Assembly (NCBI GenBank): GCA_032718475.1
Contig: JAUCBJ010000116.1
Span: 1-64,000, forward strand
DNA: 64,000 nucleotides
Source: Nemertoderma westbladi
Lineage: Eukaryota; Animalia; Xenacoelomorpha
Direction: 5' to 3'
How positions within the stretch are numbered: the first letter of the stretch is position 1; every line of letters begins with the position of its first letter. The position numbers and the translations under genes were made by a program. The notes below the pieces were generated by a model that was not told the DNA's origin, did not search any database, and saw only the letters and a list, made by a program, of their open reading frames with translations. Shown here piece by piece: positions 1-33,892 of this stretch.

Positions 1-523
1 AGGGATCCCGATTTATCCGATGTGGTATTTAGTCCACGCGTCCCCGCCGTGTATAAGAGTGAAATAAAGATAACTGAGTTCTGAAGTTCGGTGTATAATA
101 ATAGGTTATAGGATATAGATATATTGTGAATTATACGGCAGGCGGGATACGGTAACTAAAGTCCCGTGATCCCCTAACTAAACTAATTGGCTGTACCCTA
201 CGCTAGCACTGCTGCACTGAGATAACTGAATCACTGATTAATAGGTTATTGGTTATATTGCACGGTGGCCTTACTGCTACTCAATCGATGCTATTCCCCC
301 CCTCTGATTGGTTAATACCCTTGTTGGCGCCCCGTGGAGTATTCCCGTTCACTCCACCTGTTCTCTCTGGGTTAGGGGTTTGGCCCCTGACCCTCTATTG
401 TGTGCTTCCTTCCCACTCTTATTGGGATGGCACGAGTTGGTTAATTGCCAAATCTCGTGGCTCCCAATATTGCTTATCGGCTTACAACTTTATGGGGTGT
501 TGGCGGGATTGAATAAGCTAACA
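1..523 (-). repeat. 3' LTR of element A (about 16 nt missing beyond the window start)
   Basis: Near-identical to 21316-21838; one substitution seen (gccaaatc vs gcccaatc). Confidence 0.95.
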
Positions 524-1232: not shown

Positions 1233-2924
1233 TTATCTGTTCCTCCTCACGTCCTCTTCCCTGGCCCGTTTCTTGGTTATCACCGCTCCTCTGGCATCAT
1301 CCGCTTTCTGCTTCCGGACCTTCGCTGCCACTTCCTTGCTGATCCCGGTCGTCGGCTCCTTGGGCGCTGGTGTTATTAATGCCCGATACCGCTTCGCCGG
1401 TGGCCCCTCAGAATGGCCTGGTTGTTTCCCTCGTGTGGCGTCCCATAGGATCATCTTCATTGCCTTTGGTACGTGTTCCGCCAAGAAATCCCTAAACTCC
1501 CTCCGGTTCTCTGGTGTCCACCTGTCCAGGTACCGTTGCGTGTTCATAACTCCGGCGAACGATGCCGCCGTTGCTACCTCTTGATAGGTAAACGGTAACC
1601 TTCGCTTTATGATTTCCATGTGGGTCTCCTGGTTTATGAGGAAGAAACCCCACTTGAACTCTTGGGCCTTCATGCGCTGGCGCGTCATGGCCCCGACGTC
1701 GGCCCACTCCTCGAACCTCGTGAACTTCTCCTCGTCGCTCATCCAGTCGCACTCGCGTCCGTAGTGCCCCCGAAAGTGGCACTTTGGACATCGGTTATGC
1801 AACCGTGGACACGCCCCCATCCTGTGACTTGGTTCTCTACAGTAGAGACAAAAGGTTCCCCGTTGGAACCGGTATAGGCAGCTGCTTTCCTGATGGGTCT
1901 GTCTCCCACAGTAGTCGCAGCCGAGTACCAATGTCTCCCGTCCCACCTCGTCCTTCGTCCCAAGCGATCTCCGCGGTCTATGGAGTCGCTGGTAGGCAAA
2001 CTTCTCCACGTTGCTCTCCCTGTTTACGTCGATCTCTCCGCCCCTCTCGGGCATCGTCTCCCCGAATACTATCCGTGGTGCCGTCCCCGGTTGCTCGCCC
2101 AACCTGATGGTGCTCCCCGCGAAATCCATCGCCGGCCCCTCGTGCACCCAGGTCCGCTTGCCGGATCTGTTCCAGAAGGCCCTCGCCCCACTGGCCGTCA
2201 CCACCCTTCCGCCAACCCAGTCCGTGTCCGAGTGGCCTATCCTTTCGATGGGCGGCATCTCTCCGAACTCGTCGTCGTCGTCCTCCTCTTCTGGTAGTGT
2301 CTCCAATCCCGGTATCCCGATGGATCCACTATGTCCCTTCCCGCCTTGGCTCTCGCCCGTAGCTCTCCATCCCTCTAGCTCCCTTAACTTCCTTGGCGGT
2401 TGGTCGCCCTCGGCGCCCGCTGGTATGGGCATCGCGTGCAACCCCGACGTCGACTGTTTCGGCGATCCCACCGTCCATCCCAATTCTCGCCCTAGAGACT
2501 CCCCCGAACTCCCCGACGAAGTCCAATGAGGTTCGTCTAGGCCCGCCTGTTCCTCGAAGCCATAACTCTGTGTCCTGGCCTCCTCTTCCCTCTCCTCTGC
2601 TTCTATCCTCTCCCGTCTAGCGACTTCTTCCAGTCGCTTTGCTTCCCGTCTATCCATCTCTAGCTGCTCCCATCTCTGATACGGTGTATCTGTCTCCCCA
2701 TCTACCAGATGTCGGCTGTTGTAGGACACCGACTCGCCCTTCAGCCCCGGGTGGTCTACCAGACCGTCAAAGGCCGTCTTAAAGGCTCTCCTGTAGCTTA
2801 GGGGTGATCCCGATAACAGAAATGCCCCTGGTTCCCTTTCGATAACTACGGTCATGAATAAGTTAAGCAAACTTATCATCATCCAGTCCTCCTGCAGGAT
2901 ATATCGCTTCTGATATACCTTTAT
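1233..2924 (-). CDS. C-terminal part of accessory ORF2 of element A: acidic linker, three CCHC zinc knuckles, basic tail
   Basis: CDYCGRQTHQESSC, CLYCREPSHRMGAC and CPKCHFRGHYGREC all fit C-x2-C-x4-H-x4-C; joins in frame at IKVYQKR to 11529-10687. Confidence 0.8.
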   Translation of the reverse strand: MKVYQKRYILQEDWMMISLLNLFMTVVIEREPGAFLLSGSPLSYRRAFKTAFDGLVDHPGLKGESVSYNSRHLVDGETDTPYQRWEQLEMDRREAKRLEEVARRERIEAEEREEEARTQSYGFEEQAGLDEPHWTSSGSSGESLGRELGWTVGSPKQSTSGLHAMPIPAGAEGDQPPRKLRELEGWRATGESQGGKGHSGSIGIPGLETLPEEEDDDDEFGEMPPIERIGHSDTDWVGGRVVTASGARAFWNRSGKRTWVHEGPAMDFAGSTIRLGEQPGTAPRIVFGETMPERGGEIDVNRESNVEKFAYQRLHRPRRSLGTKDEVGRETLVLGCDYCGRQTHQESSCLYRFQRGTFCLYCREPSHRMGACPRLHNRCPKCHFRGHYGRECDWMSDEEKFTRFEEWADVGAMTRQRMKAQEFKWGFFLINQETHMEIIKRRLPFTYQEVATAASFAGVMNTQRYLDRWTPENRREFRDFLAEHVPKAMKMILWDATRGKQPGHSEGPPAKRYRALITPAPKEPTTGISKEVAAKVRKQKADDARGAVITKKRAREEDVRRNR

Positions 2925-2927
2925 ATC

Positions 2928-3456
2928 TGTTAGCTTATCCAATTCCGCTAACACAAACCCATAGAGTGAGCCATAAAGCAATATTGGGAGCACGAGGTTG
3001 ATTACCAATCAACCTCGTGTCAGCCCAGTAAACGGGGACAATAGGCCCCAAAGGAGACACACACAATAGGGGTCAGGGGCCAAACCCCTAACCGAGAGAG
3101 AACACAGGGAGTGAAGGGAAACACTCCAAAGGGTGCCAACAGGGATATCAACCAATCAGAGGGGGGAAAGGCATCGATTGAGTAGCAATAAGGCCACCGT
3201 GCAATATAACCAGTAACCTGTAATCATTCATTCAGTTTACTCAGTCAGATCAGTAGGGTGGAACGGGGACTTCTGTCACCGTCCGCTACCGCCATTATAT
3301 ATTACCTGTTGTGTCATACTATACTATATCAACTATCAGACTATTATACCTTTATACATATTACCCAACATCAGAACTCTTTTACCTTTCACACACGGCG
3401 GGGACGCGTGGATAGAAAACCCAACGGATAAACCGGGATCCGTAGATCCCGTCACA
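2928..3456 (+). repeat. 5' LTR of element B (TG...CA, 529 bp)
   Basis: Diverged homolog of LTR A: TATA-like AATATAA near 3203, Inr-like TCAGTT near 3232, shared end GATCCCGTCACA. The end is inferred from A/B homology. Confidence 0.8.
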
Positions 3457-3465
3457 GTGACAGAA
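3457..3465 (+). other. Non-tRNA primer-binding site of B (GTGACAGAA)
   Basis: Exact reverse complement of TTCTGTCAC at 3271-3279 in the same LTR. Confidence 0.7.
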
Positions 3466-3585
3466 CTAGATCCGCCCAGCTGCCCTGACAGAGATAGAAT
3501 CCTAGCAGCTGCCCTAACAGTCTGACAGTGATAGAACTAGATCTAACCAACTGACAGACTGTGGCTGCCAGCTACCAAAGGCGAG

Positions 3586-6500
3586 ATGAGTCGAGAGAGA
3601 GGAACGACACCGCCGCGGACCCCGGACGACGATCTAACGATCCGCGAGGCCACGGCGAGACGATACGAACCCACGACGCCGGTCGATGCTACGCCGACCA
3701 CGTCGACGCCGGTTGACGCCACGTCGATAACGAGCAACCCGGCGAACCAAGATGTGGGGGGTCGTCTACGAGGAGAGAGCGAGTCGAGTAGAGGAGAGAG
3801 TGAGACGGGAGAGGAGAAAGACGAGTCGACGCGGAGCGAGGGTCGACATACCGATGTCACCGGCCAGCCACAGGCCGAGGGCGACGAGACGGCCCACCGG
3901 AACGGCAACGGTGGGGCCGCCGGTACGACGTCGGACCCGGAGAGATGGAGGGGAGGTCGGCGACGAGGATGTCGGGGTTTCTGATCGACTTCGACGAGCC
4001 TACGCCGCGACCCGGGAACAACTGAAGGAAGCTAGAGGAGGGGCTGAGATAGACCAGGTGAAGTTGAGGAGACGACTAGGTGAGTCGAACAGATACTTTG
4101 ATTACCTAGTGCGTTCTGGGCAGGGAGAACTGGCCGAGGAGAGAGCGAGAGGGGTTGCCTTCGAACTGTTTGGGCTATGGGAACGTAGGGGTATGGGGCC
4201 TGGTGTAGTGTACATAGGGCCATACTTAGTCGATGCCAGGGAAGTTAAGTTAGTGGGTTGGGCGGGACCGCACGAGGGCGAATCCGAGGTTAGCTCCGAG
4301 GATTCGGTCTCGTCGGTCAGCGAGGACCCCGGAAAGCGGGGGAAAGTTGAGTAGGACGGAGGGGCGGCGGGAGTCCGTCGCAACCGATAAGTCTGCTACA
4401 TCCTCCGCAAAAGAAAGACGGGTGCGAGAGAGTGAACGCATGGCATATAAATTAAAAATGGAAGAATTAGAGTGGCGACTGAGGGGAAGGAAGGAGCAAG
4501 AGAGTGAACGCGAAGAGCGTGAGGCAAGAGAACAGAGCGTGCGGTACACGTACAGTACGTACAGCAACCGTACGGGCGAGGGGGGTAGTAGTAGTGCGTT
4601 AGGAAATATTGGTATTAATAGTACCGTAGTAAATAACCCTAATCCCTTTATTACAGGAAATATTTTACCCGGTAGTAGTAATTTAAGTTTAAATTCAAAT
4701 AATAATATTAATTCAAATATTCAGAATAATCAAAATAATTCAAATAATTCGAATAGCAATTTAAATTTTGAAAATAATAATAATTCTAACTTAAATAATT
4801 TAAATAATAATCCCGTTTCAAATTCTAATAATTTAATTGATTTAACAAATAATATTGGGAATGGTGCTATTAATATGAACGTGTCAGACGTGTATAGCCC
4901 GGCAGACGGCGGCCTGGTAGGCCACGTAGTTAGTAGGCAGGAAGTGGCGGGGTTGCGCCAACCCGACGGCGGCCTGGTAGGCCACGTAGTTGGTAGGCAG
5001 GAGGTAGCGGGGTTGAGCCAACCCGAGGTGGGCCTGGTAGGCCTCGCAGTAGTAGAGAGAGAGGCGGGGGTGAATAGACCCAGCCGTAGTAGAGATAGTG
5101 TGTCGACTAGAGAGGGGTGTAGAGACGAAGTAAGAGATATTGAAGTTAGAAGTAGCGGGTGGGGGGGGGCTACGGGCACCCCACCGCGAGAGATTAGTAG
5201 CGAGAGAGGGGGGGCAGAGAGTGTCCCACAGGCGTCAGCGGATAATGCGCGGGCCGAATTAGGTAAACCGCAACACCCGGCGACGGAGAGTAATAGGGGG
5301 ATTGCGAGTATCCCCAGCGGCGTGCGATCGAGCAGAGAGAGACAGGTTGACGTCGCGAGAGGGCGGGCGACGGAACGTCGAGCCCAGTCAGAAGAGAGAA
5401 GATTAGTAGAGTTTAATAGAGAGGTCGAAGATAGGAGAAGATTAGTAGAGTATAATAGAGAGGTCGAAGATAGAAGAAGATTAGCAGAGTTTAACCGAGA
5501 GGTCGAAGAGAGAAGAAAGGAAGATAATAGAAGAGTCGTTGCTAGGAGCAACCGGAGAGCGAGGACGGATAGCGAGCCGTCGATAGTAGAGATGGAGTTA
5601 GGGAGTCAGTGGGGTCGAACTTCGGGAGATTGCCGTCGCCCCGGAGAAACGCACCGCACGCCAAGAGAGGGGTACAGGATGTACCGATACGAAGACGAGA
5701 GCAGGATAGGGGATCGAAGGGAAGCTTCCCGACGTGATATAGCTGCCGATCGAGAGTACGGTAGTCGCGGGGAGATTCGAGATTCGAGAAGAATAAACTT
5801 CGATTCGGAAGGGCACATGCAGACTGCAGGACATACTGTAGGCCTTACTGCACATACTATTATAGGCCATGCTGGGAGAGATAGAGTAGGCGATAGGGTA
5901 GCGCGGACGACGGGATTAAACCCGGAAGTCGCGGAGTACATACCGGTAGGTAGGCAAGAAGTGAATAGGCCTATATCGGTACCGGTACAGCAGCATGACT
6001 ATAATTTCCAGGGACACAACATATATCCAGGGGAGGGGAGAGTTATTGTAGATAGATGTATGGGCCCCAATATATTAACATCAACCCCAGTACCAAACAT
6101 ACCGGTGGGGGGGGGACAGGGTGACATTCCCCCATCACAATATCAACAATATACCCCAATAGGAGCGAGAACATCGAACCCCTTGGACGAGAACAGATCA
6201 TGCGACACGGAAATATGGAGGGGGCCGTTACCCCCAATGATATATCCGACGCAACAAATAAAATCAACAACAGATAGGACGGACGGACCGCACCCAACAG
6301 GAGAAACTATACAACATCCATCGAACCCATTAGAAGCGCAAGCGATGGGAATGGCCACATTGATCGATGCGTTAAAAACTAGGATCGAGTTACCACCTGT
6401 GGAACCATTTAAATTCGATGGGAGTAGGCCGGAAGAATATCTACAGTTTCGGCGCATGTATAGTAACGAAATATTAAGTAAGAACTTGACGCAGGCGGAG

Positions 6501-8414
6501 TGCCTAAAATATCTGCAAGTATATACAGGAGGCCCAGCATACGACATCGTGAGGCAATACCAGGGCATCGAGGGCGGCTTCACGACAGCATGGCGGGCGT
6601 TAGATAGGGAGTACGGGCACCCAGCCAAGATCATCCGGCAAACCCTGAGAGGCATAACATCGGATGGCCTACAGGACAATCCCGTTAGCATAAGGACCTT
6701 TGCGAACAAGGTCGAGAAGGCGTTAATCGTGTTAAAGACGCTAGACGCACCATACGAACTCAACGCGTCTAACAACATCACCACGATAGCGCAGGCACTG
6801 CCGATCTGGTTACGAAGGAAGTGGAGGAAAATCGCTTTCTCCACACGGGAAGAGAAGGGTGTGGAACCGGGCCTAGAAGAGATGTCGAGCTTCTTGAACT
6901 ATGAAGCCGAACTAATAACAGACCCAGTCTATAGCGAGGATAGTTTGGGGAAGGCACCTAAGACCGAATACAACTGGCCTGAACCCGAATATAATCCGAC
7001 AGACCCATTCTCGGGAGTGGGACAATCACTACCACATGCGGCCACACAGGGGACTGCTAGTCCACAGTTAGCTGGTAGCAGGGCCACACCGTGGCGGGGA
7101 CAGAAAGAAAATAACACCATAAATAAACATAATCCCAATGTACCCAGTAGGCCGAATACAGACAACCAAAACACTAAATCGGTACATATAAACCTACGCG
7201 CGATACGTGAGGGACTATACAGGGAACGCTATGATCCAGGATTCGAATGTCAATTACATCGGGATGGAACACATAAGACCAGGAGTTGTAAGCACTGGCA
7301 AGCGTTGCCCAAACAAGATCGTATAGCCTACACAGACGCGAACGGACTATGTCATCGATGTGTGGTAGAAGGACACAGGTCCGGAGAGTGTAGAGAGACA
7401 GCAGTTAGAGAGTCCGAGACTGGAGGCCAGGCAATGGCCACAAGCACGACAGAAGAGGAGAAGAAGAGAAAAGTACTACTCGGGGTAGTACCAGTAAAGA
7501 TATCAGGAGAGGGCGGTCGATCAGTAACGACATTAATGCTGGTCGACAGCGGAGCAGCCTTCACGCTGGTGGAGAACTGGGTGGCCGAAGAGATAGGGCT
7601 AAAGACAAGGCCGAATAGAATGGCGGTGACTACCGTCTCGAGTAAAGATGAGGTCCTGGAGACGAGGGCGGGGCGGTGCAGGATAGCAGCGATTGCACCG
7701 GGATGCGACTATGGGGCGACGATCGACCCCATCCACGTCATCGAATCGATAAACATCAACGCCAGGCGACCAACCAACATTGAGGTCGAGCAGTATAGAT
7801 TCCTGGACGGTATCGATTTCTCAATACCAAAGGTGGACGTTAGGAAGGTGTCCATTATAGTAGGGATGGACTGCCCGACGGCCCACGAGAGAACGAAGAC
7901 GGTCTTCGGCGAAGACAGGCAGCGGGACCCGACGGCGATCCTCACGCCGTTCGGATGGACGCTTAGCGGCCCAGTTAAAACTAAGATCCCATGCAGTGTG
8001 ACAGAGACATCAGGGTGCATGTTACCAGGCACCGCAGACATAGAGGACGAAGATAAGAAGCCGGAGGAGATAGTAGAGCCAGATAGGGAGGTGACAGTAA
8101 GAAAGTGGGCAGAGGAGAGTAGGTTTCCCAGCAAGCATCGGTATGGAGATGAAGCGGAGCGGACGGCGAGGTGTCCGGAGGACAACACTCCAGAGGAGTG
8201 TCTGGAGGAGTGTCTGAGGAGTGTCAGAGGAGTGTCCGGAAGAGATGCCGGTCCGGTTTGGAGGCATACCGACAAGGGGGAAGTCGAGAAGGAAGGCAGG
8301 ATGGAAAGGAATAGGACTACTGTTCTGCCTGTTCTTTCACTTTCTATTCATTCTGCCGGCGGGAGACAACAAAGAAAGAGATGGCATTTTGATGCCAAGA
8401 GAGGACATAGTTAA
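3586..8414 (+). pseudogene. gag: gag-protease of B (two +1 insertions near 3888 and 4349; open 1355-aa frame 4347-8414; RT/RH/IN deleted)
   Basis: LPPVEPFKFDG BEL gag domain, zinc knuckles, protease LVDSGA; colinear with A until GCMLPG. Confidence 0.85.
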
Positions 8415-8749
8415 GAAGGCGGTGGAGAGACCCGATTTTGGGGTGGTAAAGGGGGAGAGCCAATTCCAGATGAGTTGGAGTTGGCGAGGAAAGTGGGTGG
8501 AAAGATAAGAGGACGCGCAGGGGGACAGCGGGACAGTGCCTCATGGAAGAATCGATGGAAGATCGAGGGGCAGCTTAGAGTTTAGTCGTCCAATATTTGG
8601 ACTGAGGGGGGTGGGAATGAGGGCGAGACGCCCTTCCCACAAGAAATTAATTATTTAATTAAAAATAAAAATAAATAATAATAAATAATTAAATAATTAA
8701 AATAATAGTTAGTAGAAGTAAGAGGTAGTTCGAAGATAGGAGAGTAGAG

Positions 8750-9480: not shown

Positions 9481-9504
9481 AGTTAGCAGAAAGTTAGAGG
9501 GTTT

Positions 9505-10686
9505 TCCCGCCTGCCGTATAATTCACAATATATCTATATCCTATAACCTATTATTATACACCGAACTTCAGAACTCAGTTATCTTTATTTCACTCTTATA
9601 CACGGCGGGGACGCGTGGACTAAATACCACATCGGATAAACCGAAGAAGGAGAAGTTTGCCTACCAGCGACTCCATAGACCGCGGAGATCGCTTGGGACG
9701 AAGGACGAGGTGGGACGGGAGACATTGGTACTCGGCTGCGACTACTGTGGGAGACAGACCCATCAGGAAAGCAGCTGCCTATACCGGTTCCAACGGGGAA
9801 CCTTTTGTCTCTACTGTAGAGAACCAAGTCACAGGATGGGGGCGTGTCCACGGTTGCATAACCGATGTCCAAAGTGCCACTTTCGGGGGCACTACGGACG
9901 CGAGTGCGACTGGATGAGCGACGAGGAGAAGTTCCAGAAGGCCCTCGCCCCACTGGCCGTCACCACCCTTCCGCCAACCCAGTCCGTGTCCGAGTGGCCT
10001 ATCCTTTCGATGGGCGGCATCTCTCCGAACTCGTCGTCGTCGTCCTCCTCTTCTGGTAGTGTCTCCAATCCCGGTATCCCGATGGATCCACTATGTCCCT
10101 TCCCGCCTTGGCTCTCGCCCGTAGCTCTCCATCCCTCTAGCTCCCTTAACTTCCTTGGCGGTTGGTCGCCCTCGGCGCCCGCTGGTATGGGCATCGCGTG
10201 CAACCCCGACGTCGACTGTTTCGGCGATCCCACCGTCCATCCCAATTCTCGCCCTAGAGACTCCCCCGAACTCCCCGACGAAGTCCAATGAAGTTCGTCT
10301 AGGCCCGCCTGTTCCTCGAAGCCATAACTCTGTGTCCTGGCCTCCTCTTCCCTCTCCTCTGCTTCTATCCTCTCCCGTCTAGCGACTTCTTCCAGTCGCT
10401 TTGCTTCCCGTCTATCCATCTCTAGCTGCTCCCATCTCTGATACGGTGTATCTGTCTCCCCATCTACCAGATGTCGGCTGTTGTAGTACACCGACTCGCC
10501 CTTCAGCCCCGGGTGGTCTACCAGACCGTCAAAGGCCGTCTTAAAGGCTCTCCTGTAGCTTAGGGGTGATCCCGATAACAGAAATGCCCCTGGTTCCCTT
10601 TCGATAACTACGGTCATGAATAAGTTAAGCAAACTTATCATCATCCAGTCCTCCTGCAGGATATATCGCTTCTGATATACCTTTAT
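9505..10686. other. Templated patchwork: inverted LTR-A piece (9505-9640 = rc of 12-147), inverted ORF2 piece (9649-9934 = rc of 1722-2007), direct duplicate (9931-10686 = 2169-2924)
   Basis: Direct sequence comparison; GTTC microhomology at 9931-9934; two amino-acid-changing substitutions seen between the 756-bp copies. Confidence 0.9.
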
Positions 10687-11529
10687 CGCTCCTCTGCGAA
10701 ACTGATATACCTCCTGCTTTCCCGGTCTCGCTCCCCACTTCAGCGAGTTCGCTAGTTCTGCTCCGTATTCTTCCCTAAACTTCCCCCAATCCATTGGTTT
10801 GTGGCATACGAGCCCCAATAATTGGCCCATCGCCACCGCCCCGCATTGGCCTGAGTTCTCGACCACCCCCAATCCATCCGGTGCCGTCATAGCCATAAAG
10901 ACTTTCTGCATATCCAGGAGGTTGGTGGCGTCCGGACCGATGATCCTCTCCGCGTCCTCGCGAATCGCCGATCCCACTTTCGTCGTCGACTTCTCTCTTA
11001 CTAAGACTTGTACCGCTTTCGGCAGTCGGTCTAATTTCGGCCCGTCCTTCTTCCCATACGTCCCTAGGTCGAATAAGAAGATGTCCCCATTCGGCGCGGC
11101 CAAATGTAGGAGTATGGTCCTGGCCGACCCTGCCGTTCCTCGTCTTGAACCCGCTTCGTCCTCCACGGTTCCCTCGTCATCTAGGATCATATATCCTCCT
11201 CTGTTGACGGACTCTATGAATCTTTTCCAGTCCTTCCTCGGCGATTCCCTCGGATACTTCGGAATCCCGAACTTCGCTTCGTCCCCTTTCACCACGTAGT
11301 GGAAGTGTTGGAAGATCGCGTTGTCCAGCGACGGCGTCCCGTAGGTCCCGACCAACCGCTGTTCGTGCGCCTCCCGGAAGTGATCCTGCAGCGCTCGTGC
11401 CGCGTGACCCCTTTCCAACCTCTCGTAGTATCCTCTCGTCTTCTCCTCCGGGTGTCTTTCGGTGAAATCCACCAATATTTCTTTTCCTCCTGACTCCGCC
11501 TTTCTCTTCCTGATCAGCTTACTCGCCAT
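9931..11529 (-). CDS. N-terminal part of ORF2 of element A with a WRN/EXD-like DEDD 3'-5' exonuclease domain (about 10640-11210)
   Basis: ILDDEG (ExoI), LLHLAAPNGDIFLFDL, LP...KVGSAIRED (ExoII), LLDMQ, LLGLVCHK, QKRYILQED (ExoIII-like); ATG at 11529 followed by an RKRK NLS-like motif. Confidence 0.72.
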
Positions 11530-12042
11530 TCCGAACACTACACTCGCTCACCTGTAGGGTGGTGCCTTACCAAGGCGCAATACAGATGAGTGATGTATTA
11601 AGATGTTTCGTACAGTTCGATAATGGCCTACTTTTCTACTTAACTGCGCCTTTCAAGCTTAATTTAATCTAATTAATTTCGGAGCTAGTAAATCAGCCTA
11701 ATTTACAATTTCCGTCCGTTACTTTTATTATGTTCTAGAACGACTTTCCTTGTGTTACCACTATTTTTCGATTTTTAGCCCTATTCTATTTATTTATTTA
11801 TTTTGCTTTGATTCTACTGTCCTACTACTTACTACTGCCTATGGATTTATTCTATTCTCTCTCTGATCCATATTCTGGCCTACTCAGTGGGCCTATGCAG
11901 TACAGCAGTATGCGTCGTGTGGCCACACGATTTATCCAGCTGCACTCATATGCCCCCCTCTCTCTACTAACTCTACTTACTGCTAACTAATATCTATATC
12001 CTATTTACCCCTTTTACCTCTTACTCTCTCTCTCTAACTAAT

Positions 12043-12746: not shown

Positions 12747-15700
12747 CTAAGGTGCTCCTTCTAAGAGACAGCATTTACCTACCGCTCTCCTGTAGGTTTT
12801 TCTGTCCTTTGCACCTATCTTTCCACCTATCCGCACTTCTACCGATCGGACTCTTCCGTCCTCGTCGGAGTAGGTGCCTACAACTCTCGCCAACCGCCAT
12901 TGGTTGTTGATGATAGTATCATCCGTGACGATTACGAGATCTCCCTCTCTCAACTCCCTGTTTGGCTTCCTCCACTTGCTTCGCTTATGGAGCGTGGGTA
13001 GGTATTCTTCTACCCACCTCCTCCAATACTCTGCGCTTATTGCTTTAGCGACTTTCCAACTTTGGCGGGAGTGTATGTCATCTGGGTCTACACCCCGCAT
13101 ATCGATGGTCGCTGGCCTTTCCATCAGAAAATGGCTAGGCGTCAGCACGTCTAACGACTCAGGGTCATCATTCTCCGGATATAGCGGTCTGCTATTAATG
13201 ATCCCCTCGCACTTCGCAAGTACCGTCCGTAAGACGTCTTCAGTGACCATGTGGGTGTTCATCAGCTTCGTCATTAGACGTTTTGAACTGCCCACCAGTC
13301 TTTCGACGCATCCTAGTGTATGTGGTGCATACGGCGTCCGTCTCTCCCACTTTACTTGTCGTTTTCTCATGGCCGCCCTGACTTCTTCTCCTTCTAAGAT
13401 GTCCAAGGCTTCTGCCATCTCGCTCTCTGCGCCCACAAAGTTGGTGCCGTTGTCGCTGTATATCACTGCGATCGTCCCACCTTTGCGGTCCCTAAACCTT
13501 TCTAAGGCGTTAATGAACGCTGATGCGGTTGCATCTTGGGCGAGTTCTATCCCCACCGCCCGCGTATTGTTGCATACGAAGATAATGCCGTAACGTTTCT
13601 CCGTGTGTCGCATCACTTTGATCTTTATCGGCCCGAACATGTCCACACCGCAATGCGTAAATGGCGGGTCGTGCTGTCTTACCCTACTCGCCGGTAGTGG
13701 CGCCATCTCCTGTACGGCTCGTTCCTTCTTCGCTCGTCGGCAGGTCTGGCACTGCCCCACTACCGCTTTAACCTTCTTCCTTAGTTGTTTGACCCAATAG
13801 GTCCTCCTTATCTCTGTGAGGGTTCGGTTGGTGCCCCCATGCAGTATCGATTTGTGGGAGTCCCATATGATCTGGTGGACTATAGGCGATCCTGTGGGAA
13901 TGATGATGGGTTTCGGTGGCACGACTATACTGTTGTTATATCCCACCCTAGAATTCATTACTAGGATCCCATCCTCGTTGAGTTGTGGCGACAGCGTAAT
14001 CAACTCGCTGTCCCGTCGGAGGTGCTGTTGGTTGCCGACACGTTCCACCTCGTCGCCGTAGTTCTTGCGTTGTTCATAGCGGATCACTGCCTTGGCCGCT
14101 CCTTCCAGATCTATGGTTGTCCTGGTCTTCTTGTCCTTGCCGACTCCCGCAAGGAAATTCCCAAAGGCTCTCCAGTACGCCACTAGTTTCTTGGTCTTAT
14201 ACCAACTAGAACTGTAGCTGAGGAGTTTATCCGTCGGGTTATCGCACAGTTCCCTTCCTGGTTGCACGTCCCTAATCTCCCTCACCATCTGGGAGTATAT
14301 CTCTTCTCCCTCTGAATCTCCCTCTCCTTCTGATACTGGTTCCGAGCCCGGGTCCACCTTCTTCATCGGCGGCCAGGCCTCTCTATCGCTCAGAAATTGT
14401 GGCCCATGTTGCCACAATACTTCCTTCTTCAGGAAAGTGTGGCGTTCCACGCCCCTCGACAGCAAGTCCGCTGGGTTCTCATCTGTTGGGCAGTAGTGCC
14501 ACCTTTCCAGTTCTGTGCTCGCCCTTATTTCGTCCACTCTATTCGCGACGAATATCGGGTATCTCGTCTTTTCGTTGTGTAGCCATCCAAGCACTACCAT
14601 GGAGTCCGTCCAGTAGTGTGTCTCCACTATGTTGGGAATTGTATCCACTAGGTAGGCTGTGGCTCTAACTCCTAGTCTCGCAGCTGTCAATTCTAACTTG
14701 GGAACAGATGCTGAATCTGGCGGCGTTGACTTAGCTTTGCTAAAGGCTAGTCTGGGCTTGTGAGGCCCCTCTCGTTGTACTAAATAGAGTGCCGCTCCGT
14801 ATGCCTCTAACGACGCGTCGGAGAACATATGTAAGTCCAGATTCGTCATGTTCCCGTCCGGGAAATACACTCGCGGCATGTTGTATGTTCCCATCCTCTC
14901 CAAGTCTCCTGTCCATTTGCTCCACTGTTTCTTGATGTCCTCTGGTACTTCTACATCCCACTCATCCTTCAATTTATATACTCTCTTGAGTATCTGTTTC
15001 CCCGTGACTAGTAGTGGGGATGCTAGGCCTAGGGGATCGTATATCCTTGCTATATACGATACATAACCCCTCTTCGTATGGGTGTCTGCGCCCTCCTGGC
15101 TCAGCTGATACTTCAGTTCGTCTGTTTTCCTATCCCACACGATTCCCAATGCCTTCTGCTGGGATTCCGTTCTCTTAATCGCCATGTCCTGTCCTTTGGC
15201 TGTTGTAGGGTTGTCCATGGTCGATCCTGGTTTCTTGTCTTCTATTTCCTTGATAAATTCTTCTGAACTGGATTGGAATTTGGTCAGGTTGAAGCCGGAT
15301 CCTTTCAGGATGTCGCGAACCTCGCGCCCTGTTTCCAGTATCTCCTCAACCGTATTTCCAGACTCCATACCGTCGTCTACGTAGAAGCCGCGTCGGATCA
15401 TATCGACGGCCCTACTGCTATATCTATCTTCCTTCCCCTTTACCGTGTCTCTCACTGCCATAGTCGTCGTAAATGAGGACGACTTGGCCCCCATATTTTG
15501 TACTACCATCTTATACACTGGTATTACCGGCGGTTCTTCTTCGCCGTTATACCATAAGAAGCGTTGACTATCGCTATCTTCCTCTGTTACTCGGACTTGG
15601 TTGAACATGCCTTCTATGTCACACGTGAAGGCGTGTTTCCCATTCCTAAATCTAAGTAGTACTTCTATGCCCGAATTGTATATGTTTGGGCCCTCTAGTA

Positions 15701-17954
15701 GGTAATCGTTTAAGCACTTTCCGTCGGTCTTTGCCGATGCATCGACTACCATCCTAAGTTTACCTTTCTTTGGGTCTAAAGCTACGTGGAGTGGCAGGTA
15801 GTATGTCCTGTCCGTGTTCGGTTCGTCGACCGGTAACTCCACGGCCCATCCCTTCTCGACGTACTTCTTGATCGTTTTGTGAATGTACTCGTTCTTCTCG
15901 GGGCTCCGTTGTAGTGTTTGTTTCAGCTTGCGGAGTCTCGTGAGTACCATCCCTCTATTATCGGGTAGCGGTATCTTCGGTAGTTTCCATACCATTCCTA
16001 TTGTATACCGCCCCTCATCACACGTCATCGATTCCTCCACACTTTGTAGAGCCTGCTTGTCTTCTACCGAGGTCCCGACCCCTGTCTCTTTCAGTCCCTC
16101 GAAGTCTTGTCTGAGCAGTCTTTTAAGCTGCTCCTCTGCTCCCTCGTCACCCATTTCCTGCATTGTTCCCGCGAACATGCATCCTGATGTCTCCGACATC
16201 CTGAATGGTATCTTGCTCTTAATTGGACCACTCAGCGTCCACCCGAATGGCGTTAATATGGCCACCGGGTCGCTCTGCTTGTCTTCGCCGAAGACCGTTT
16301 GCATTCTCTCGTGGGCCGTTGGGCAGTCCATGCCTACTATGATGGATACCTTCCTAACGTCCACGTCTGGGATTGAGAAGTCAATGTTGTCCAGGAATTT
16401 GTATTGCTCGACCTCGATGTTGGTTGGCCGCCTGGCATTGATGTTAATTGACTCTATTACTTGGATGGGGTCGATGGTTGCCCCATAATCGCATCCTGGT
16501 GCCACTGCTGCAATTGCGCACCGTCCTGTCCTCATCTCTAGGATCTCGTCTTTGCTAGAGATGGTTGTCACCGCCATCCTGCTTGGCCTCGTTCTCAACC
16601 CTATTTCTTCGGCTACCCATTCCTCAACTAATGTGAAGGCAGCTCCACTATCAACCAGCATTAGTGTTGTTACTGATCGATTGCCTTCCCCGATCACTCG
16701 CACCGGTACTACTCCAAGTAACACCGTGCCTCTCTTCTTCGCCCCTACCGTGCTCGTTGCCATCGTTTGGCCTCTCCTTTGGCCAAACTTGACCGGCTTC
16801 TCTTGGCATTCCCTGGCCTTGTGTCCACTCTTTACACATCGCGAGCAGATTTTATTGCTCGACGCGTAATCTATCTGGTCTTGCCTCGGTAGCGCCTGCC
16901 AGTACCTGCAATTCATAGTTTTATGAAGCGCATTTGCGTGTAGCTGGCATTTGCTCTTTGGGTCGTAGCCCTCTTTATACAATGCATTGCGTATCGCAGT
17001 TATATTCGTACCAAAGTCCCTACTATTCTTATTGACTGGGTTTGGCCTACTGGACGTACTGGGGTTATGTTTATTCATGTTGTTATTGTTCCCCTGTCCG
17101 TCCCTTGATGTTGTCTTATCTTCGTTTGTCTGTGGACTTGCAGTCCCCTGCGTCGCTGCGTATGGCAATGATTGTCTGAGCCTCGGCAATGCGTTTGATG
17201 TATTGTGCTCTGGTTTGGGCCTGTAGTGATCTGTCTTTGGTCCCTTTCCCAGGCTATCTTCACTATAGACTGGGTCCGTTATTAGTTCAGCCTCGTAATT
17301 TAAGAAGTTTGACATTTCTTCTAAACCTGGTTCCGCACCCTTCTTGTCTCGGGTGGAGAAAGCGATCTTCCTCCATTTGTTGCGCAGCCAGCTCGGTAGT
17401 GCCTGCGCTATCGTGGTGATGTTATTGGACGCGTTGAGCTCGTATGGCGCGTCTAGCGTCTTCAGCACGATCAGCGCCTTCTCGACTTTGTTAGCAAACG
17501 TCTTAATGCTAACGGGATTATCCTGTAGGCCACCCGATGTTATGCCTCTCAGCGTTTGCCTGATGATCTTGGCCGGGTGCCCGTATTCCCTATCCAGTGC
17601 CCGCCATGCTGTCGTGAAGCCGCCCTCTATTCCCTGATATTGCCTCACGATGTCGTATGCTGGGCCTCCCGTGTATACTTGTAGATACTTTAGGCACTCC
17701 GCCTGCGTCAAGTTTTTTGTTAGTATTTCGTTACTATACATTCGCCGAAACTGTAAGTATTCTTCCGGCCTGCTCCCATCGAATTTGAACGGTTCCACGG
17801 GTGGTAATTCGATCCTCGTTTTCAACGCATCGATCAACGTGGCCATCCCCATTGCCTGCGCTTCTAATGGATTCGACGGGTGCTGTATAGTTTCCCCTGT
17901 CTGGTGCGGTTCGTCCGTCCTATTTCTTGATCTTCTCTGACTCGGATATGTCAT
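12747..17954 (-). CDS. pol: BEL/Pao gag(C-term)-pol polyprotein of A, 1735-aa open frame
   Basis: Gag FKFDG, PR LVDSGA, RT YYLPLH/LRMVVDAS/CDIEGMF/FYVDD, RNase H MFSDAS/WTDS, IN HHCC plus VDMFGP/SDNGTNF/VERL. Confidence 0.95.
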   Translation of the reverse strand: MTYPSQRRSRNRTDEPHQTGETIQHPSNPLEAQAMGMATLIDALKTRIELPPVEPFKFDGSRPEEYLQFRRMYSNEILTKNLTQAECLKYLQVYTGGPAYDIVRQYQGIEGGFTTAWRALDREYGHPAKIIRQTLRGITSGGLQDNPVSIKTFANKVEKALIVLKTLDAPYELNASNNITTIAQALPSWLRNKWRKIAFSTRDKKGAEPGLEEMSNFLNYEAELITDPVYSEDSLGKGPKTDHYRPKPEHNTSNALPRLRQSLPYAATQGTASPQTNEDKTTSRDGQGNNNNMNKHNPSTSSRPNPVNKNSRDFGTNITAIRNALYKEGYDPKSKCQLHANALHKTMNCRYWQALPRQDQIDYASSNKICSRCVKSGHKARECQEKPVKFGQRRGQTMATSTVGAKKRGTVLLGVVPVRVIGEGNRSVTTLMLVDSGAAFTLVEEWVAEEIGLRTRPSRMAVTTISSKDEILEMRTGRCAIAAVAPGCDYGATIDPIQVIESININARRPTNIEVEQYKFLDNIDFSIPDVDVRKVSIIVGMDCPTAHERMQTVFGEDKQSDPVAILTPFGWTLSGPIKSKIPFRMSETSGCMFAGTMQEMGDEGAEEQLKRLLRQDFEGLKETGVGTSVEDKQALQSVEESMTCDEGRYTIGMVWKLPKIPLPDNRGMVLTRLRKLKQTLQRSPEKNEYIHKTIKKYVEKGWAVELPVDEPNTDRTYYLPLHVALDPKKGKLRMVVDASAKTDGKCLNDYLLEGPNIYNSGIEVLLRFRNGKHAFTCDIEGMFNQVRVTEEDSDSQRFLWYNGEEEPPVIPVYKMVVQNMGAKSSSFTTTMAVRDTVKGKEDRYSSRAVDMIRRGFYVDDGMESGNTVEEILETGREVRDILKGSGFNLTKFQSSSEEFIKEIEDKKPGSTMDNPTTAKGQDMAIKRTESQQKALGIVWDRKTDELKYQLSQEGADTHTKRGYVSYIARIYDPLGLASPLLVTGKQILKRVYKLKDEWDVEVPEDIKKQWSKWTGDLERMGTYNMPRVYFPDGNMTNLDLHMFSDASLEAYGAALYLVQREGPHKPRLAFSKAKSTPPDSASVPKLELTAARLGVRATAYLVDTIPNIVETHYWTDSMVVLGWLHNEKTRYPIFVANRVDEIRASTELERWHYCPTDENPADLLSRGVERHTFLKKEVLWQHGPQFLSDREAWPPMKKVDPGSEPVSEGEGDSEGEEIYSQMVREIRDVQPGRELCDNPTDKLLSYSSSWYKTKKLVAYWRAFGNFLAGVGKDKKTRTTIDLEGAAKAVIRYEQRKNYGDEVERVGNQQHLRRDSELITLSPQLNEDGILVMNSRVGYNNSIVVPPKPIIIPTGSPIVHQIIWDSHKSILHGGTNRTLTEIRRTYWVKQLRKKVKAVVGQCQTCRRAKKERAVQEMAPLPASRVRQHDPPFTHCGVDMFGPIKIKVMRHTEKRYGIIFVCNNTRAVGIELAQDATASAFINALERFRDRKGGTIAVIYSDNGTNFVGAESEMAEALDILEGEEVRAAMRKRQVKWERRTPYAPHTLGCVERLVGSSKRLMTKLMNTHMVTEDVLRTVLAKCEGIINSRPLYPENDDPESLDVLTPSHFLMERPATIDMRGVDPDDIHSRQSWKVAKAISAEYWRRWVEEYLPTLHKRSKWRKPNRELREGDLVIVTDDTIINNQWRLARVVGTYSDEDGRVRSVEVRIGGKIGAKDRKTYRRAVGKCCLLEGAP

Positions 17955-20900
17955 CGGGGGTAGCGGCCCCCTCCATATGTCTGTATCACACGACCTGTTT
18001 TCATCTAGGGGTCTCGTTGTTCTTGTTCCTGTCGGGGTATATTGTTGATATTGTGATGGGGGAATGTCACCCTGTCCCCCCCCCCACCGGTATGTCTGGT
18101 ACTGGGGTTGATGTTAATATGTTGGGGCCCATACACCTATCCGCAATAATTCCCCCCTCCCCTGGGTATATGTTATGTCCCTGCATGCTGTAGTCATACT
18201 GCTGTGCTGGTACCGGTATAGGCCTATCAGCTTCTGGCCTACTCGCCGGTATGTATTCCGCGACTTCCGGGTTTAATCCCGTTGTCCGCGCTATCCTATC
18301 GCCTACATTGCCTCTCTCAGTATGGCCTACGGTATGTGCAGTAAGACCTACAGTATGCCCTACAGTCTGCATGTGTTGCTCGGGATCGAAGTTTATTCTT
18401 CTCGAATAATCCTCCCCGCGGCTACCGTATTCTCGATCGGTAGGTATATTCTGTCGGAAAGTTTCTCTTCGACCCCCCTCTCCACTGTTTTCATCTTCGT
18501 ACCGGTACATCGCGTACCCCTCTCTCGGCGTGTAATGCGTCTCACCGGATCGCATCCCTCCGGGGCGACGGCAATCTCCCGGAGTCCGACCCCACTGACT
18601 CTCCGTTCTCATCTCGACTACCGACGGCTCGCTGTCCGTCCTCGCTCTTCTATCTTTTGCGGCGATACTTCTACTACTCTCTTCCTCTCTTCTCCTATCA
18701 GTGGAATATTCCCGCTCACGAGATCCCTCGTCGACCTCCCAGTTAAACCCCACTGTTCTTATTTCCTCCTCTGATCGGGCTCGACGCTCCGTCTGCCCTC
18801 CCGCGACGTCAACCTGTCTTTCTCTGCTCGATCGCACATCGCTGGGGATACTCGCAATCCCCCTATTACTTTCCGTCGCCGGTTGTTGCGGTTTACCTTG
18901 TTCGGCCCTCGCATTGTCCGCTGACGGCTGTGGGACACTCTCTGCCCCCCCCCCCCCCCCTCTCGCCGCTAACACTCTGTTGTGGGGCCCTTGTAGCCCC
19001 CCCCCCACCCGCTACATTCTACTTCGCTACCTCTCGCCCCGCTACTATATATCTCTCTAGTCGACACATCAACCCTACCACAGTCGGGTCTGTTCAGCCC
19101 CGCCTCTCCCTCTGCTATTGCGTGGCCTTCCAGGCCCTCTACTCCCTGCCTACCAACTACGCGGCCTACCAGGCCCTCTGCTCTCTGTCTACTAACTACG
19201 TGGCCTACCAGGCCCTCTGCCCCCTGTCTACTAACTACGTGGCCTACCAGGCCCTCTGCTCCCTGGTTACGTAGGCCCGACGTGTTTACATTAATAGCAC
19301 CCATATTGGAAACGGAATTAATTTGCTCATTTGAAACAAAATCATTTGTATTATTCTGCGCGACTACGTTATCTGAATTATTTTGTAAATTCGGGCTAAG
19401 ATCATTATTTGAATTATTCGAATTATTCTGTGTAATTGCGTTATTTAAGTTATTTTGTAGGTCCGAATTCGAGTTATTATTTTGATTATTTGAATTATTT
19501 TGCGTAACTACATCAATATTAGGATTATTTTCTACACTAACACTGGGATTGTTCTGATTTAAATTTAAATTACTACCACTAGGCAAAGTATTTCCTGTAA
19601 TAAAGGTTTGATTAGCGTTATCCCATACGGTACTATTAATATCAACAACGTCTACTGTACCATTATTATTACCCCCCCCCCCCCGCCCGTACGGTCGCAC
19701 CAGTTTTGGGTCTGTCGTGCGGTCCCTGTCAGTGGAGTATTAATAAATATATCTACGGCCCTCGGCTCCTCAAAAATACTCGAGCCGGCCCCGGTTTCCG
19801 ACGGCGTCGCTCGCACGTATTCCAACTCGTGCTCCCCTCTAATTATATTTCCCGCAAACTCACTCTGCCGTTTCTCTAATTCCTTGCGCTCTTTTTCACT
19901 CTCTGCCATTTTCCCCTCACGCTCCTGGGTGTCCTTGATGGCCGAGTCTGCGGCACTCTTAATGCTCTCCCTTCGTCTCGCCTCACGCTCTTTGCGTTCC
20001 TTTTCCTTTCTCGTCTCATATTCCTTGCGTTCCTTTTCCCTTTTTGCCTCACGTTCCTTGCGTTCCTCGTCCTCCCTTGCCTCACGCTCTCTGCGTTCCC
20101 TTTCCTCTCTCGCTTCACGCTCCCTACACTCCCTTTCCTCTATCTCATCATACTCCCTTAGGCTTTTCAAAGCCCTTTCTGCCCTTTCTCCGGTTTCTCT
20201 AAGCAATACCGTTTCCCTCTCTAACCGCACTCTTCCCTCCTCTAGCCGTTCCTTCATTTCTCTCTGACCTTGCTCTGCCATGCTGAGACGGTATGCGGCT
20301 CCTATTTTCCTCACCGCTCTTTCTTTCGCGGAGGATGTAACAGACTTATCGGTTACGACGGATTTCCCCCGCCTTCCCGACCTACTAACTTTCCCCCGCT
20401 TCCCGGAGCTTTCTCCGACCGACGAGGCCGAATCCTCGGTGTTAACCTCGGATTCGCCCCCTTCGAGTCCCCTCCAACCCACCGGTTTTACTCCCCGGGC
20501 ATCGATTAAGTATGGCCCTATGTACACTGACGCTATGCTAGGTCCCATACTCCCACACTCCCATAGTTCAAACAGTTCGCCTGCAATTCCTTTTGCTCTC
20601 TCCCCGGCTAGTTCTCTCTGCCCAAAACGTATCAGGTAATTTAAGTGTCTATCCGACTCACCTAGTCGCTTTCTCAGTCTCACCTCGTCTACCTTCGCCC
20701 CTTCCTTCTTGGCGTCGTTTATCAGCTTCCGGGTCGCGTTGTAGGCCCGTCGAAGTCGCTCAGAAACCCCGACGTCCTCGTCGCCGACCTCTCCTCCGTC
20801 CCTCCGGGTTCGACGTCGTACCGGCGGCTCCACCGTCGCCGTTCCGGTGGGCCGTCCGTCGCCCTCGGCCTGTAGCTGGCCGGCGACATCGGTACCAATC

Positions 20901-21220
20901 TCTCCTCCGTCTCTTCGCGTCCGGCGTCGCACCGTAGGCCCCACCGGTTCGGTGGGCCGCTCGTCGCCCTCGGCCGGTAGCTGGCCGGCGACATCGGCGC
21001 GCCGTCCTCCGTCCCGTGTCGACTCATCTCCTTCTCCCTCCGTCTCGCTCTCTTTCTCTCTTGGCTCGACTTCGGGTTCCAGGCCCTCCTCGTCCTGTGC
21101 TTCCGGTTCGCCCGTTATCGATGGCTCCGGCGTCGTGGGCCTGTATCGTTTGGTCGCGGCCTCGCGGATCGTTAGGTCTTCGTCCGGGGTCCGCGTCGGT
21201 GTCTCGCCCGATTCACTCAT
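17955..21220 (-). pseudogene. gag: Long N-terminal gag extension of A (coiled coil, Asn-rich), split by frameshifts at poly-C runs
   Basis: Frames 19652-21220, 18969-19700 and 18067-19008 are colinear with the frame of B; breaks fall at C runs near 19675, 18950-19000 and 18080. Confidence 0.8.
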
Positions 21221-21290
21221 CTCGTTTGTGGCTAATGATTCGGCTAGCTAGGTTGCAGTTCTTAGAGTTTAACTAGGGCGGCAGCTCGGT

Positions 21291-21299
21291 TTTAGTTAC
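21291..21299 (-). other. Non-tRNA primer-binding site of A (GTAACTAAA)
   Basis: Exact reverse complement of TTTAGTTAC inside the LTR (minus strand 21475-21467; 160-152 in the 3' LTR). Confidence 0.7.
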
Positions 21300-21838
21300 T
21301 GTGACGGGATCCAGGAGGGATCCCGATTTATCCGATGTGGTATTTAGTCCACGCGTCCCCGCCGTGTATAAGAGTGAAATAAAGATAACTGAGTTCTGAA
21401 GTTCGGTGTATAATAATAGGTTATAGGATATAGATATATTGTGAATTATACGGCAGGCGGGATACGGTAACTAAAGTCCCGTGATCCCCTAACTAAACTA
21501 ATTGGCTGTACCCTACGCTAGCACTGCTGCACTGAGATAACTGAATCACTGATTAATAGGTTATTGGTTATATTGCACGGTGGCCTTACTGCTACTCAAT
21601 CGATGCTATTCCCCCCCTCTGATTGGTTAATACCCTTGTTGGCGCCCCGTGGAGTATTCCCGTTCACTCCACCTGTTCTCTCTGGGTTAGGGGTTTGGCC
21701 CCTGACCCTCTATTGTGTGCTTCCTTCCCACTCTTATTGGGATGGCACGAGTTGGTTAATTGCCCAATCTCGTGGCTCCCAATATTGCTTATCGGCTTAC
21801 AACTTTATGGGGTGTTGGCGGGATTGAATAAGCTAACA
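21300..21838 (-). repeat. 5' LTR of element A (539 bp, TG...CA)
   Basis: Matches 1-523; end at 21300 inferred from the CCCGTCACA terminus shared with B. Confidence 0.88.
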
Positions 21839-31166: not shown

Positions 31167-33085
31167 TATAGAATTATATTCTCATAAATGCCGTGGATTT
31201 TCAAAATTTTATTTTGTTCGAATTAACTTTCTATAAAGATTACATTAAGTCTTCATTTGCATTTACTATATCTATTTGTATAACATTGTTCAAGTGGTTC
31301 AGTAGCTCAGTCGGTTAAGCGTTGGAAATTCGTGTTGTAGGTATCGAGTTCGAATCCCAGTAAGTGTGAATTATTTTTTGTGCTAAGTTTCAACTCATTT
31401 AAATTAACCGCTACGAATTAAATTGCATTTGCTCAAGGTAGATTAACCAATAAGATTGCAGTTATTAGATAGTAACCAATGTCGTGCAAGATACGTGTTC
31501 GCTGGACCAATGATTATCTTTAAAAACCTAGTAGAACTCATAGAACAATCTAGATTTATCTCGATTGATTGCAGCACAAATTTGCTATAAAAGGTGCGAT
31601 TTGTTCATTAGTTATCACTCTTAATCACTTATTAGTTATCTCTCACTTACATCCATTAGTTATTTCAGATTACATTGTTTATATTAATATAATTGTTGGT
31701 TATCTGTAATAAAGTCAGAATTATCGCTATATCTGCCCTTTTCTATCATGTTTCACCACGGTGAACCTAACTGAGGGACAGGATGGCAGGCTAGACATCG
31801 GGCCACAGCAATGAACGGGAACATCGGAGGAATGTAGACAGGAGACCACCCACAATACTGATTCGTAGTTATTCGCCCATCGCCTGAAAGGTTAGACAGC
31901 GTTCGATGCCTCGCTACCTAAGTATAAGACCTGCGATCGAAGGTAGAAGTAGCGACACACTGTATGCCAAAAAATTTAAATTTAGGAACCGTATTATTTT
32001 GACTCGGGAAAACCCGCGGAAACCCTTCGTATTCCTACGGGAGGTGAGGATAGGCAGAGAGATACCAGTACACAGATAGGACACAGGCACACCATTACAC
32101 GGCATGCACATTGGTAGGGTGCAGCAAACTGTACGCCTAACTCATTTGCCAGGTATAGGTGTGCTGGTGGCTTGTCAGTAGTACAACGGTGTTCATCGTT
32201 TGCGTTGGAGCTTGTAGGCCAGGAGAGGGTTACTGTGTTTTTTCCCTGAATTAAAATTATACCGTTCAGGCGGTAGGGCAGTTTACTGCTAGGCATATAA
32301 ATTAAGGCTATTAGGGATACTAACACCTACCGTGTCCCCGCCGACATCCTGTTAGGAAGTTGCCGTGCCCATCTAGGCAACCAAAATTCTAGATAAGAAC
32401 ACCAGGCTAGCTATTTGTAACTGTACGCCTACTGTAGTAAACTAACACATTTCTTCTTAGTATTAGGGACCTGGTAAATAAAATTGCCGAATTCTGGGCG
32501 TAGTATTAACCTTATGCCTGAATTTGAGTCCTGGAAATACACAAAAGGGGGAGGAGCCTTATCATTTGTAAGTATTAGACCTACAAACTACCAAAATTAG
32601 AATATTTGTAAAATGTACACCGGACCCAGTAAATGATATTATACGAAGGATTACAAAATCAATTTGACCCTGAATAAAAACACACGCGCGTTTAGGAATT
32701 ATTTGTACCTCGAAATATATAAAATAATTTGTCCATACCACGGCTTTGCCCGCTAGTTATATTTGTAGCTAGCATCTCTCTCACCCACCATATAAATCAC
32801 ACCGCGGCAAAGTATACGAGCGCTTTTAGTCCGTCAGTGAGTCAGCAAGATTATTAGGATTCACTGCGCGGGATTTTGTTTTATCGAAGTTTGTCCGTTC
32901 GTAGACTGTCTTCTGCCTCACCGGTTATAAGAGACCAATACTGCAATAGATTTGCTTACTTGGAGTTTACTGTTTTGGTGAGAAGGTTGGATTATGCCTT
33001 GATTCACAAACTTTACAGTAGGATATTGCGGTATAAGTTGTTACTGTCTCTTACAACAGTAGGAATGTGACCTATGTTGATTTCA
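31167..33085 (+). repeat. 5' LTR of C (TA...CA termini)
   Basis: About 17 substitutions vs 46973-48891 by eye; TATAAAAG near 31586, TTAGTT Inr-like near 31608, AATAAA near 31708. Confidence 0.93.
31296..31379 (+). promoter_or_regulatory. tRNA-derived Pol III cassette in LTR C (copy at 47102-47185)
   Basis: A-box TAGCTCAGTCGG 31303-31314, B-box GAGTTCGAATCC 31346-31357, T6 terminator 31374-31379; no proper cloverleaf. Confidence 0.7.
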
Positions 33086-33096
33086 GTAGGAATACG
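33086..33096 (+). other. Non-tRNA primer-binding site of C (GTAGGAATACG)
   Basis: Exact reverse complement of CGTATTCCTAC at 32028-32038; directly abuts the LTR end defined by comparing both LTRs. Confidence 0.65.
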
Positions 33097-33892
33097 TTTT
33101 ACTGAACTACGGTTCAGTAGGACTAAAGTTATTTGAAAATTTTGTATTTTGAGGTAAAAATTTGTATTTGATTAGCTAAGTGCTAATTTTTTGAAATAAA
33201 AATTTTGATTTGAACCGCGTGTAAAATATTTGGAATTGAATACCGGTGTTTAAAAGGGTTTAAATACCATATTGTACCGGTACAAAATTTTCATGAAAGT
33301 AAAACCTAACTCTTTTGTTTTTCAGGATTCAGAGCTCATTTCTAGACTGTAACGAGAGCAAGACCGTGTTTAGCAAGTTTGGGAGATAGATAACTCAACA
33401 ACTTTGGTTGGGAAAATCGCACTTCGTCCGCAACGCTGGAAACGGAAAGGTTCACGTCCGGTTTGTATCTGGGAATCTGTTTTCTGGAGAATCATTGGAG
33501 GGGGTGAGTTCGAAAAGTTGCATAAATCACTTAGGCATTACCGTATTAGTTAAAATTATTGTGGGTTCCACTGTCTCAAGTATTTATGCATTCCGCACGA
33601 TTTCTTTGTTTATTGCTGAATTAGTCCGTATTATTGTATTTGATTTACCTTTTGATAACGTATATCGTTATCCGATTTATTTGTTATAAAATTGGCCACC
33701 AGGCTAATTTTATTATATACTTACCCCGTGACATTTATTTGCTGTAAAATTGGCCGCTAGGCTAATTTTATCCATTTGCTATAAAATCGGCCGGTAGGCT
33801 AATTTTATATGACTGTAATTAATACCGTTTAGATATAAATACGGTAAGTTTGATACTTTGACACTCACTTTACTTGACTTACAACTACCGAA

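Follow-up and report, generated by a model that had tools for sequence, protein, structure and literature searches.

Elements A, B, and C, three BEL/Pao LTR retroelements in the window (the whole stretch of DNA analyzed here, 64,000 nt), probably prime minus-strand DNA synthesis with a 9–11-nt segment of their own RNA, judging from their sequences, and it is very likely that they self-prime in some form. Self-priming as such is already known, having been described for Tf1/sushi and Tcn1 elements (Ty3/gypsy) and predicted for TAR elements (copia) in the cited passages of earlier work (PMC6317226, PMC4600332, PMC3601003, PMC6934838). What appears to be novel, with support at the sequence level, is its occurrence in BEL/Pao, an internal primer, and spliced primers in relatives. 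The sequence-only reading of this DNA knew of no earlier description in BEL/Pao, and our literature search likewise found no report of one, subscription journals and Repbase reports lying outside its coverage. Two BEL/Pao surveys mention neither PBS nor tRNA in their main text (PMC3118150, PMC554778).

LTR complements in elements A, B, and C

The limits and main coding regions of elements A and B are the following.

2928..3456, plus strand, 5' LTR of element B (529 bp, TG...CA)
3271..3279, plus strand, anti-PBS of B (predicted 3' segment of the self-primer), in a local hairpin
3457..3465, plus strand, PBS position of B, without TGG
4254..8414, plus strand, gag-protease ORF of B, ending before the RT
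21300..21838, minus strand, 5' LTR of element A (539 bp)
21467..21475, minus strand, anti-PBS of A
21291..21299, minus strand, PBS position of A, without TGG
12747..21247, minus strand, gag-pol region of A, with several frames upstream
18113-12747, minus strand, 1788-aa open frame of A (protease, RT, RNase H, integrase)
1..523, minus strand, A-type 3' LTR, last 16 nt outside the window; anti-PBS copy at 160-152
531-524, minus strand, purine tract before the A-type 3' LTR

The sequence-only reading had noted that the 9-mers following the A and B LTRs are exact reverse complements of segments of their own LTRs, that gggac precedes and cgt follows both segments, and that neither element has a TGG PBS. 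All three observations were reproduced, no TGG occurring within 9 nt of either LTR. Three of the nine positions differ between A and B (PBS positions 3, 6, and 7), and each difference is indeed matched in the LTR partner, but the changes are probably not compensatory mutations in the classical sense as had been proposed. Because the primer would template a new PBS in each cycle, they need not be independent compensations. Swapping the A and B partners cost 3–12 kcal/mol of primer:PBS duplex energy; the duplex of A is weak (-7.3 kcal/mol). A second PBS-like stretch is present in B at 3526-3544, 70 nt downstream, and a second anti-PBS-like 8-mer in A at 21497-21489 (minus strand), upstream.

The LTR ends deduced by the earlier reading, 21300 and 3456, are backed by contigs and a partial 3' copy, but not by the loose-end group of run X1 (11 contigs, median 9 nt), whose longest member departs about 2 nt earlier. 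The 3' LTR copy of A (523-1) is 99.8% identical to its 5' LTR and runs past the window edge, and the start of the A/B LTR is fixed by a run X6 contig linking the purine tract with position 2928/523. Two run X5 contigs support the B LTR end by tracking the LTR to 3456 and then entering unlike flank (median 238 nt), and one public contig tracks B through 3465 before differing. The LTR end position is not identical in every A/B-type copy. Public contig depths show the family to be high-copy in the organism concerned. Contigs from one presumed RNA run are of low depth and span neither the primer segment nor the PBS. An intact target duplication was not found for A or B in the window.

Element C has two LTR copies within the window.

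31167..33085, plus strand, 5' LTR of C (1919 bp, TA...CA)
32028..32038, plus strand, anti-PBS of C, 11 nt
33086..33096, plus strand, PBS position of C, without TGG
33878..42737, plus strand, gag-pol of C in pieces, with stops and a frame change
46973..48891, plus strand, 3' LTR of C, 99.1% identical to the 5' LTR and fixing both LTR ends

An exact complement of the 11 nt that directly follow the LTR (33086-33096) is present at 32028-32038, and the flanks of C match as a target duplication at four of five bases. At offset 0, matches as long as the observed one arose in 13 (A), 3 (B), and 2 (C) of 5000 dinucleotide shuffles of each LTR, and in 34, 10, and 4 of 5000 when offsets 0–3 were allowed. 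Offset 0 was also the best of 350 downstream positions in all three elements, with 0 of 345 downstream offsets reaching its length. No splice junction lengthened the match in A, B, or C (best 7 nt, none, and 8 nt, respectively), and the three elements are of the contiguous type. ARAGORN found no tRNA in the window and made one undetermined call among 28 loci, and an Rfam search across both LTR regions gave nothing near the gathering score.

As in canonical BEL/Pao elements (Belpaoviridae, Semotivirus), A and C have the domain order Gag, protease, RT, RNase H, integrase with Pao-type domains, together with LTRs ending in CA and a purine tract, both features being BEL/Pao criteria. Pfam domains in A are DUF1759 (Gag), Peptidase_A17, DUF5641, and integrase, and those in B are DUF1759 and protease, the region from RT to integrase being absent. 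The best listed protein matches to the RT-RNase H carry PF05380 at 32–38% identity, and none among the matches listed exceeds 39%. A and C are themselves only 36% identical in this region, near the identity of A to any listed database protein. The C LTR (1.9 kb) and the span of A exceed the ICTV ranges (PMC8742986).

Self-complements in metagenome relatives

Relatives were obtained with a profile built from A, C, and 16 hits (the best 80 of 358, among 588 metagenome stretches scanned). The LTR 3' end was fixed by two copies ending in CA at 13 of the 80 loci, of which L026 and L035 are the same, giving 12 distinct relatives; the 67 loci without fixed ends were left out of the counts. For matches across a splice junction, one intron was allowed, provided that its donor was strong and its acceptor rich in pyrimidines. 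Ten of the 12 passed the strict self-complement test with 10–15 nt exact, and only 0–1 of 120 downstream control blocks did as well. The complement is contiguous in two of these (L053 and L061) and spans a predicted LTR splice junction in the other eight (11–15 nt; L009, L011, L023, L025, L035, L043, L046, and L057). L001 failed with 6 nt under the strict splice filter, reaching 11 nt with a looser acceptor. The self-priming reading advanced for A and B thus gains support from the sequence tests, the third element, and these distant relatives, complementarity being kept in C (11 nt) and 10 of the 12 with a single relative of the tRNA type. According to the ICTV profile, Belpaoviridae have an 18-nt PBS for tRNA-Arg or tRNA-Gly and a poorly understood replication (PMC8742986); unlike canonical BEL/Pao, A, B, C, and 11 of the 12 relatives have no such site (no TGG), L047 alone having one.

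When each PBS was compared with each LTR, at least 9 nt came from the element's own LTR in 13 of 15 cases and from a foreign one in 9 of 210; the two highest cross-matches belong to the sister families L025 and L043. A tree of 78 BEL/Pao loci, built without named superfamily references, showed the self-complement trait spread across it; the RT-RNase H of A and C groups with BEL/Pao proteins. Spliced and contiguous types did not cluster (240/500 and 174/500 shuffles as low), and the branches on which A and C come together are long, leaving their placement unsure; neither intron loss nor intron gain could be read from this tree. Among the 67 loci lacking fixed ends, a de novo scan, made without a null and left uncounted, yielded candidates of 13–15 nt such as L018, L020, and L063. 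No relatives were found in IMG/VR.

The elements share a common anatomy. The PBS begins 0–4 nt after the CA of the LTR, and AC closes the primer segment in 13 of the 14 elements, AT in the remaining one. Its 5' boundary also follows AC in 8 of 14, compared with a background of 5.5% (binomial 2e-7, post hoc), which is a hint of a second cut. Matches are purely Watson–Crick apart from one of 14 elements, where G-U wobble lengthens the distal end. The segment lies 86–278 nt from the LTR end in 13 elements as opposed to 1047 nt in C. C and 10 of 11 relatives have an AATAAA or ATTAAA downstream of the segment, and no canonical polyA hexamer was found after it in A or B.

Tf1/Tf2 of Schizosaccharomyces pombe, Tj1, Tf1/sushi, and Tcn1 are described in the cited passages as likewise having no tRNA PBS and a 9–15-nt LTR complement right after the LTR (PMC7175516, PMC4600332, PMC5341516). 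In Tf1, as these sources relate, the first 11 nt of the RNA pair with the PBS (PMC7175516, PMC5341516) and the RNase H cut falls between nucleotides 11 and 12 (PMC7175516). The match lengths found here are near this 11 nt, and the neighboring U5 stems predicted in A and B would also resemble those of Tf1. Unlike Tf1/sushi, however, A, B, and C are Belpaoviridae with Pao-type domains and no chromodomain hit, and promoter motifs in A and B would place the primer 37–67 nt or more inside the RNA rather than at its start. The primer also ends in a conserved AC, unlike that of Tf1, and in 8 of the 10 relatives that passed, only joining across a predicted splice junction yields it. Self-priming in the TAR lineage of Ty1/copia (Houba, Osr-1) was predicted, according to the cited passage, from an LTR stretch of 10 nt or more with a complement 0–5 nt after the LTR (PMC6317226); C and the 10 relatives have such a complement, and A and B are 1 nt short of it. 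TAR elements are plant copia, and an internal or spliced primer is not among their features as described in that passage.

RNA folding and a candidate priming cycle

The following motifs and structures were predicted in B.

3205-3209, plus strand, TATA-like box (motif scan)
3232-3237, plus strand, Inr-like TCAGTT with a predicted start near 3234 (motif scan)
3280-3293 with 3397-3406, plus strand, R/U5 long-range stem (constrained folds; same in A)
3434..3451, plus strand, U5-end hairpin, 5 nt before the LTR end, conserved in A (21325-21305)

In both A and B, TATAA and TCAGTT are accompanied by a CCAAT-like box, all with the usual spacing, and these motifs predict a transcript start that precedes the primer segment by 37 nt in B and 67 nt in A. 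A TATA box about 30 nt before the segment was seen in one of 14 elements. In predicted folds the segment of A and B sits in a local hairpin. Forcing the primer:PBS helix produced the same junction in both (R/U5 stem, small hairpin, U5-end hairpin) at a cost of 2.2 (A) and 1.2 (B) kcal/mol over the best fold. The helix pair probability is 0.03 (A) and 0.07 (B) from the predicted start; for an RNA beginning at the segment it is 0.97 and 0.36, and the junction is then the minimum-energy fold of both. The A and B regions were no more stable than shuffles (z -0.45 and -0.59). An upstream supporting helix was equaled by 1 (B), 139 (A), 160 (C), and 49 (L053) of 1000 shuffles; being significant only in B and not specific to A and B, it was rejected as a shared feature.

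The right LTR end of LTR retroelements is set by the start of minus-strand synthesis. With no tRNA site present, an invariant self-complement at the LTR edge argues for self-priming, the primer probably lying inside the RNA and a cut being predicted just after the terminal AC. Transcription would begin upstream of the primer segment, at the TATA/Inr motifs, and the leader would then refold, probably chaperoned by Gag, from the local hairpin hiding the segment to the junction in which the primer:PBS helix lies beside the R/U5 stem and the U5-end hairpin. The RNase H of the RT would cut after AC, as in Tf1, leaving a 3'-OH from which U5/R would be copied back to the cut before a jump to the 3' LTR. 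For this jump R must reach past the cut, which fits the polyA hexamers downstream of the primer segment in C and most relatives. Plus-strand synthesis would finally copy 9–15 nt of the primer, rewriting the PBS in every cycle, and such rewriting would explain both the wobble-free matches and the PBSs that spell splice junctions. The Tf1 self-primer is reportedly not removed. A long 5' leader on the primer would call for a second cut or an RT stop, with no described counterpart. A broader scheme is possible but doubtful, namely that a large animal branch of BEL/Pao replaced tRNA priming with a primer excised by two cuts, each after AC, which the host would splice together across an LTR intron in most families and which would be ready-made in A, B, and C after intron loss.

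An additional ORF of A may bear on how the primer is released.

9892..11547, minus strand, extra ORF of A after pol, N-terminal part WRN/DEDDy 3'-5' exonuclease-like
1233..3008, minus strand, downstream part of an A-type extra ORF with zinc knuckles, B being inserted inside it at 2928

Language-model features (Atlas) match the N-terminal part of the former ORF to WRN-like 3'-5' exonuclease clusters (0.94, 178/256 features), in which 34–50% of members carry PF01612; Pfam, PDB sequence, and homolog searches were all blank, and the single-sequence fold had a pLDDT of 33.6. The ORF is exonuclease-like in these model features and could trim a primer. Bdelloid Juno and Vesta elements likewise have an extra post-pol ORF (ORF3) resembling a 3'-5' exonuclease (DEDDy), according to the cited passage (PMC5408684), although they belong to other LTR lineages. 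Unannotated frames also follow pol in C (43671-44994).

It is unlikely that a self-derived primer is released by trimming instead of an RT cut, a short or sliced LTR transcript annealing in trans and being chewed 3' to 5' down to the duplex, in A and B perhaps by the element's own exonuclease-like product. The resemblance to WRN-like enzymes and a helix that always stops at a mismatch with a fixed AC speak for trimming. Against it, the exonuclease call has neither alignment nor fold support, the post-pol frames of C gave no match to such an ORF, and fewer than 300 nt separate pol from the 3' LTR in all 11 signature relatives (11/11), which leaves no place for one. Alternatively, the pairing could serve packaging, dimerization, or translation as a structural switch, with another RNA acting as primer. 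Such a switch could draw on the low cost (1–2 kcal/mol) of shifting the segment between local hairpin and long-range helix, but we consider it improbable when the partner always lies 0–4 nt after the CA of the LTR, the required start site of the minus strand, where a TGG site is absent and pure Watson–Crick matches end at the fixed AC.

Priming by a fragment of a host tRNA, or by another small RNA, with the LTR complement secondary, has a precedent in the half-tRNA primers of some copia lineages, as the cited passage has it (PMC6317226). We regard it as very unlikely here, given that the 14 elements have widely differing PBSs, each pairing with its own LTR and not with others, while a set of host fragments would follow neither each LTR nor its splice junction. 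A chance match or misplaced LTR end could be suspected in A and B, whose ends are supported by one partial second copy and by short contigs, with one loose-end group diverging about 2 nt early; however, C and the 12 relatives have two-copy LTR ends, and with the shuffle and position controls this explanation becomes highly improbable. Should self-priming as proposed here be correct, the ICTV definition of the whole family as tRNA-primed would need correcting, self-priming would have an independent origin in animals, and primer-release chemistry beyond that of Tf1 would be needed for an internal primer, its AC end, and the spliced primers of relatives. Such elements would presumably be beyond the reach of tRNA-fragment control, and LTR annotation that relies on the PBS would overlook or misread them.

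Other sequence features of the window

Both C LTRs begin with TA rather than TG (31167 and 46973). They contain a tRNA-like stretch in which A- and B-box motifs precede a T run (31295-31365, copy near 47100-47170), on which ARAGORN and Rfam made no call and which is possibly a Pol III unit or SINE remnant. Four CAGTAGGA motifs surround the C LTR end (33015-33122), one of them in a 12-bp hairpin directly after the PBS.

The 3' end of B adjoins a mosaic of A-type fragments (9505-10686), all 99–100% identical to their sources, comprising an inverted LTR piece (9505-9643), an inverted copy of 2007-1722 (9649-9934), and a direct copy of 2169-2924 (9931-10686); it is either a recent rearrangement or an assembly join. 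Purine-rich tandem repeats lie between pol and the extra ORF in A and B (8578-9500 and 12017-12731), with units of about 32–34 nt in A. The purine tract of the A-type 3' LTR is preceded directly by a 13-bp inverted repeat (546-578), and an RT fragment (21789-22682, minus strand) abuts the A 5' LTR.

A non-LTR element with two ORFs, encoding an APE endonuclease and RT, occupies 54600-58709 (plus strand). Arrays of a 146–147-bp repeat with a CCGCTAGGGGGC core, a CTCF-like motif, are found at 25049-30971, 49616-53173, and 63162-64000, and adjoin TCTATATATAAA-type ends of the kind that typifies Helitron-derived elements.
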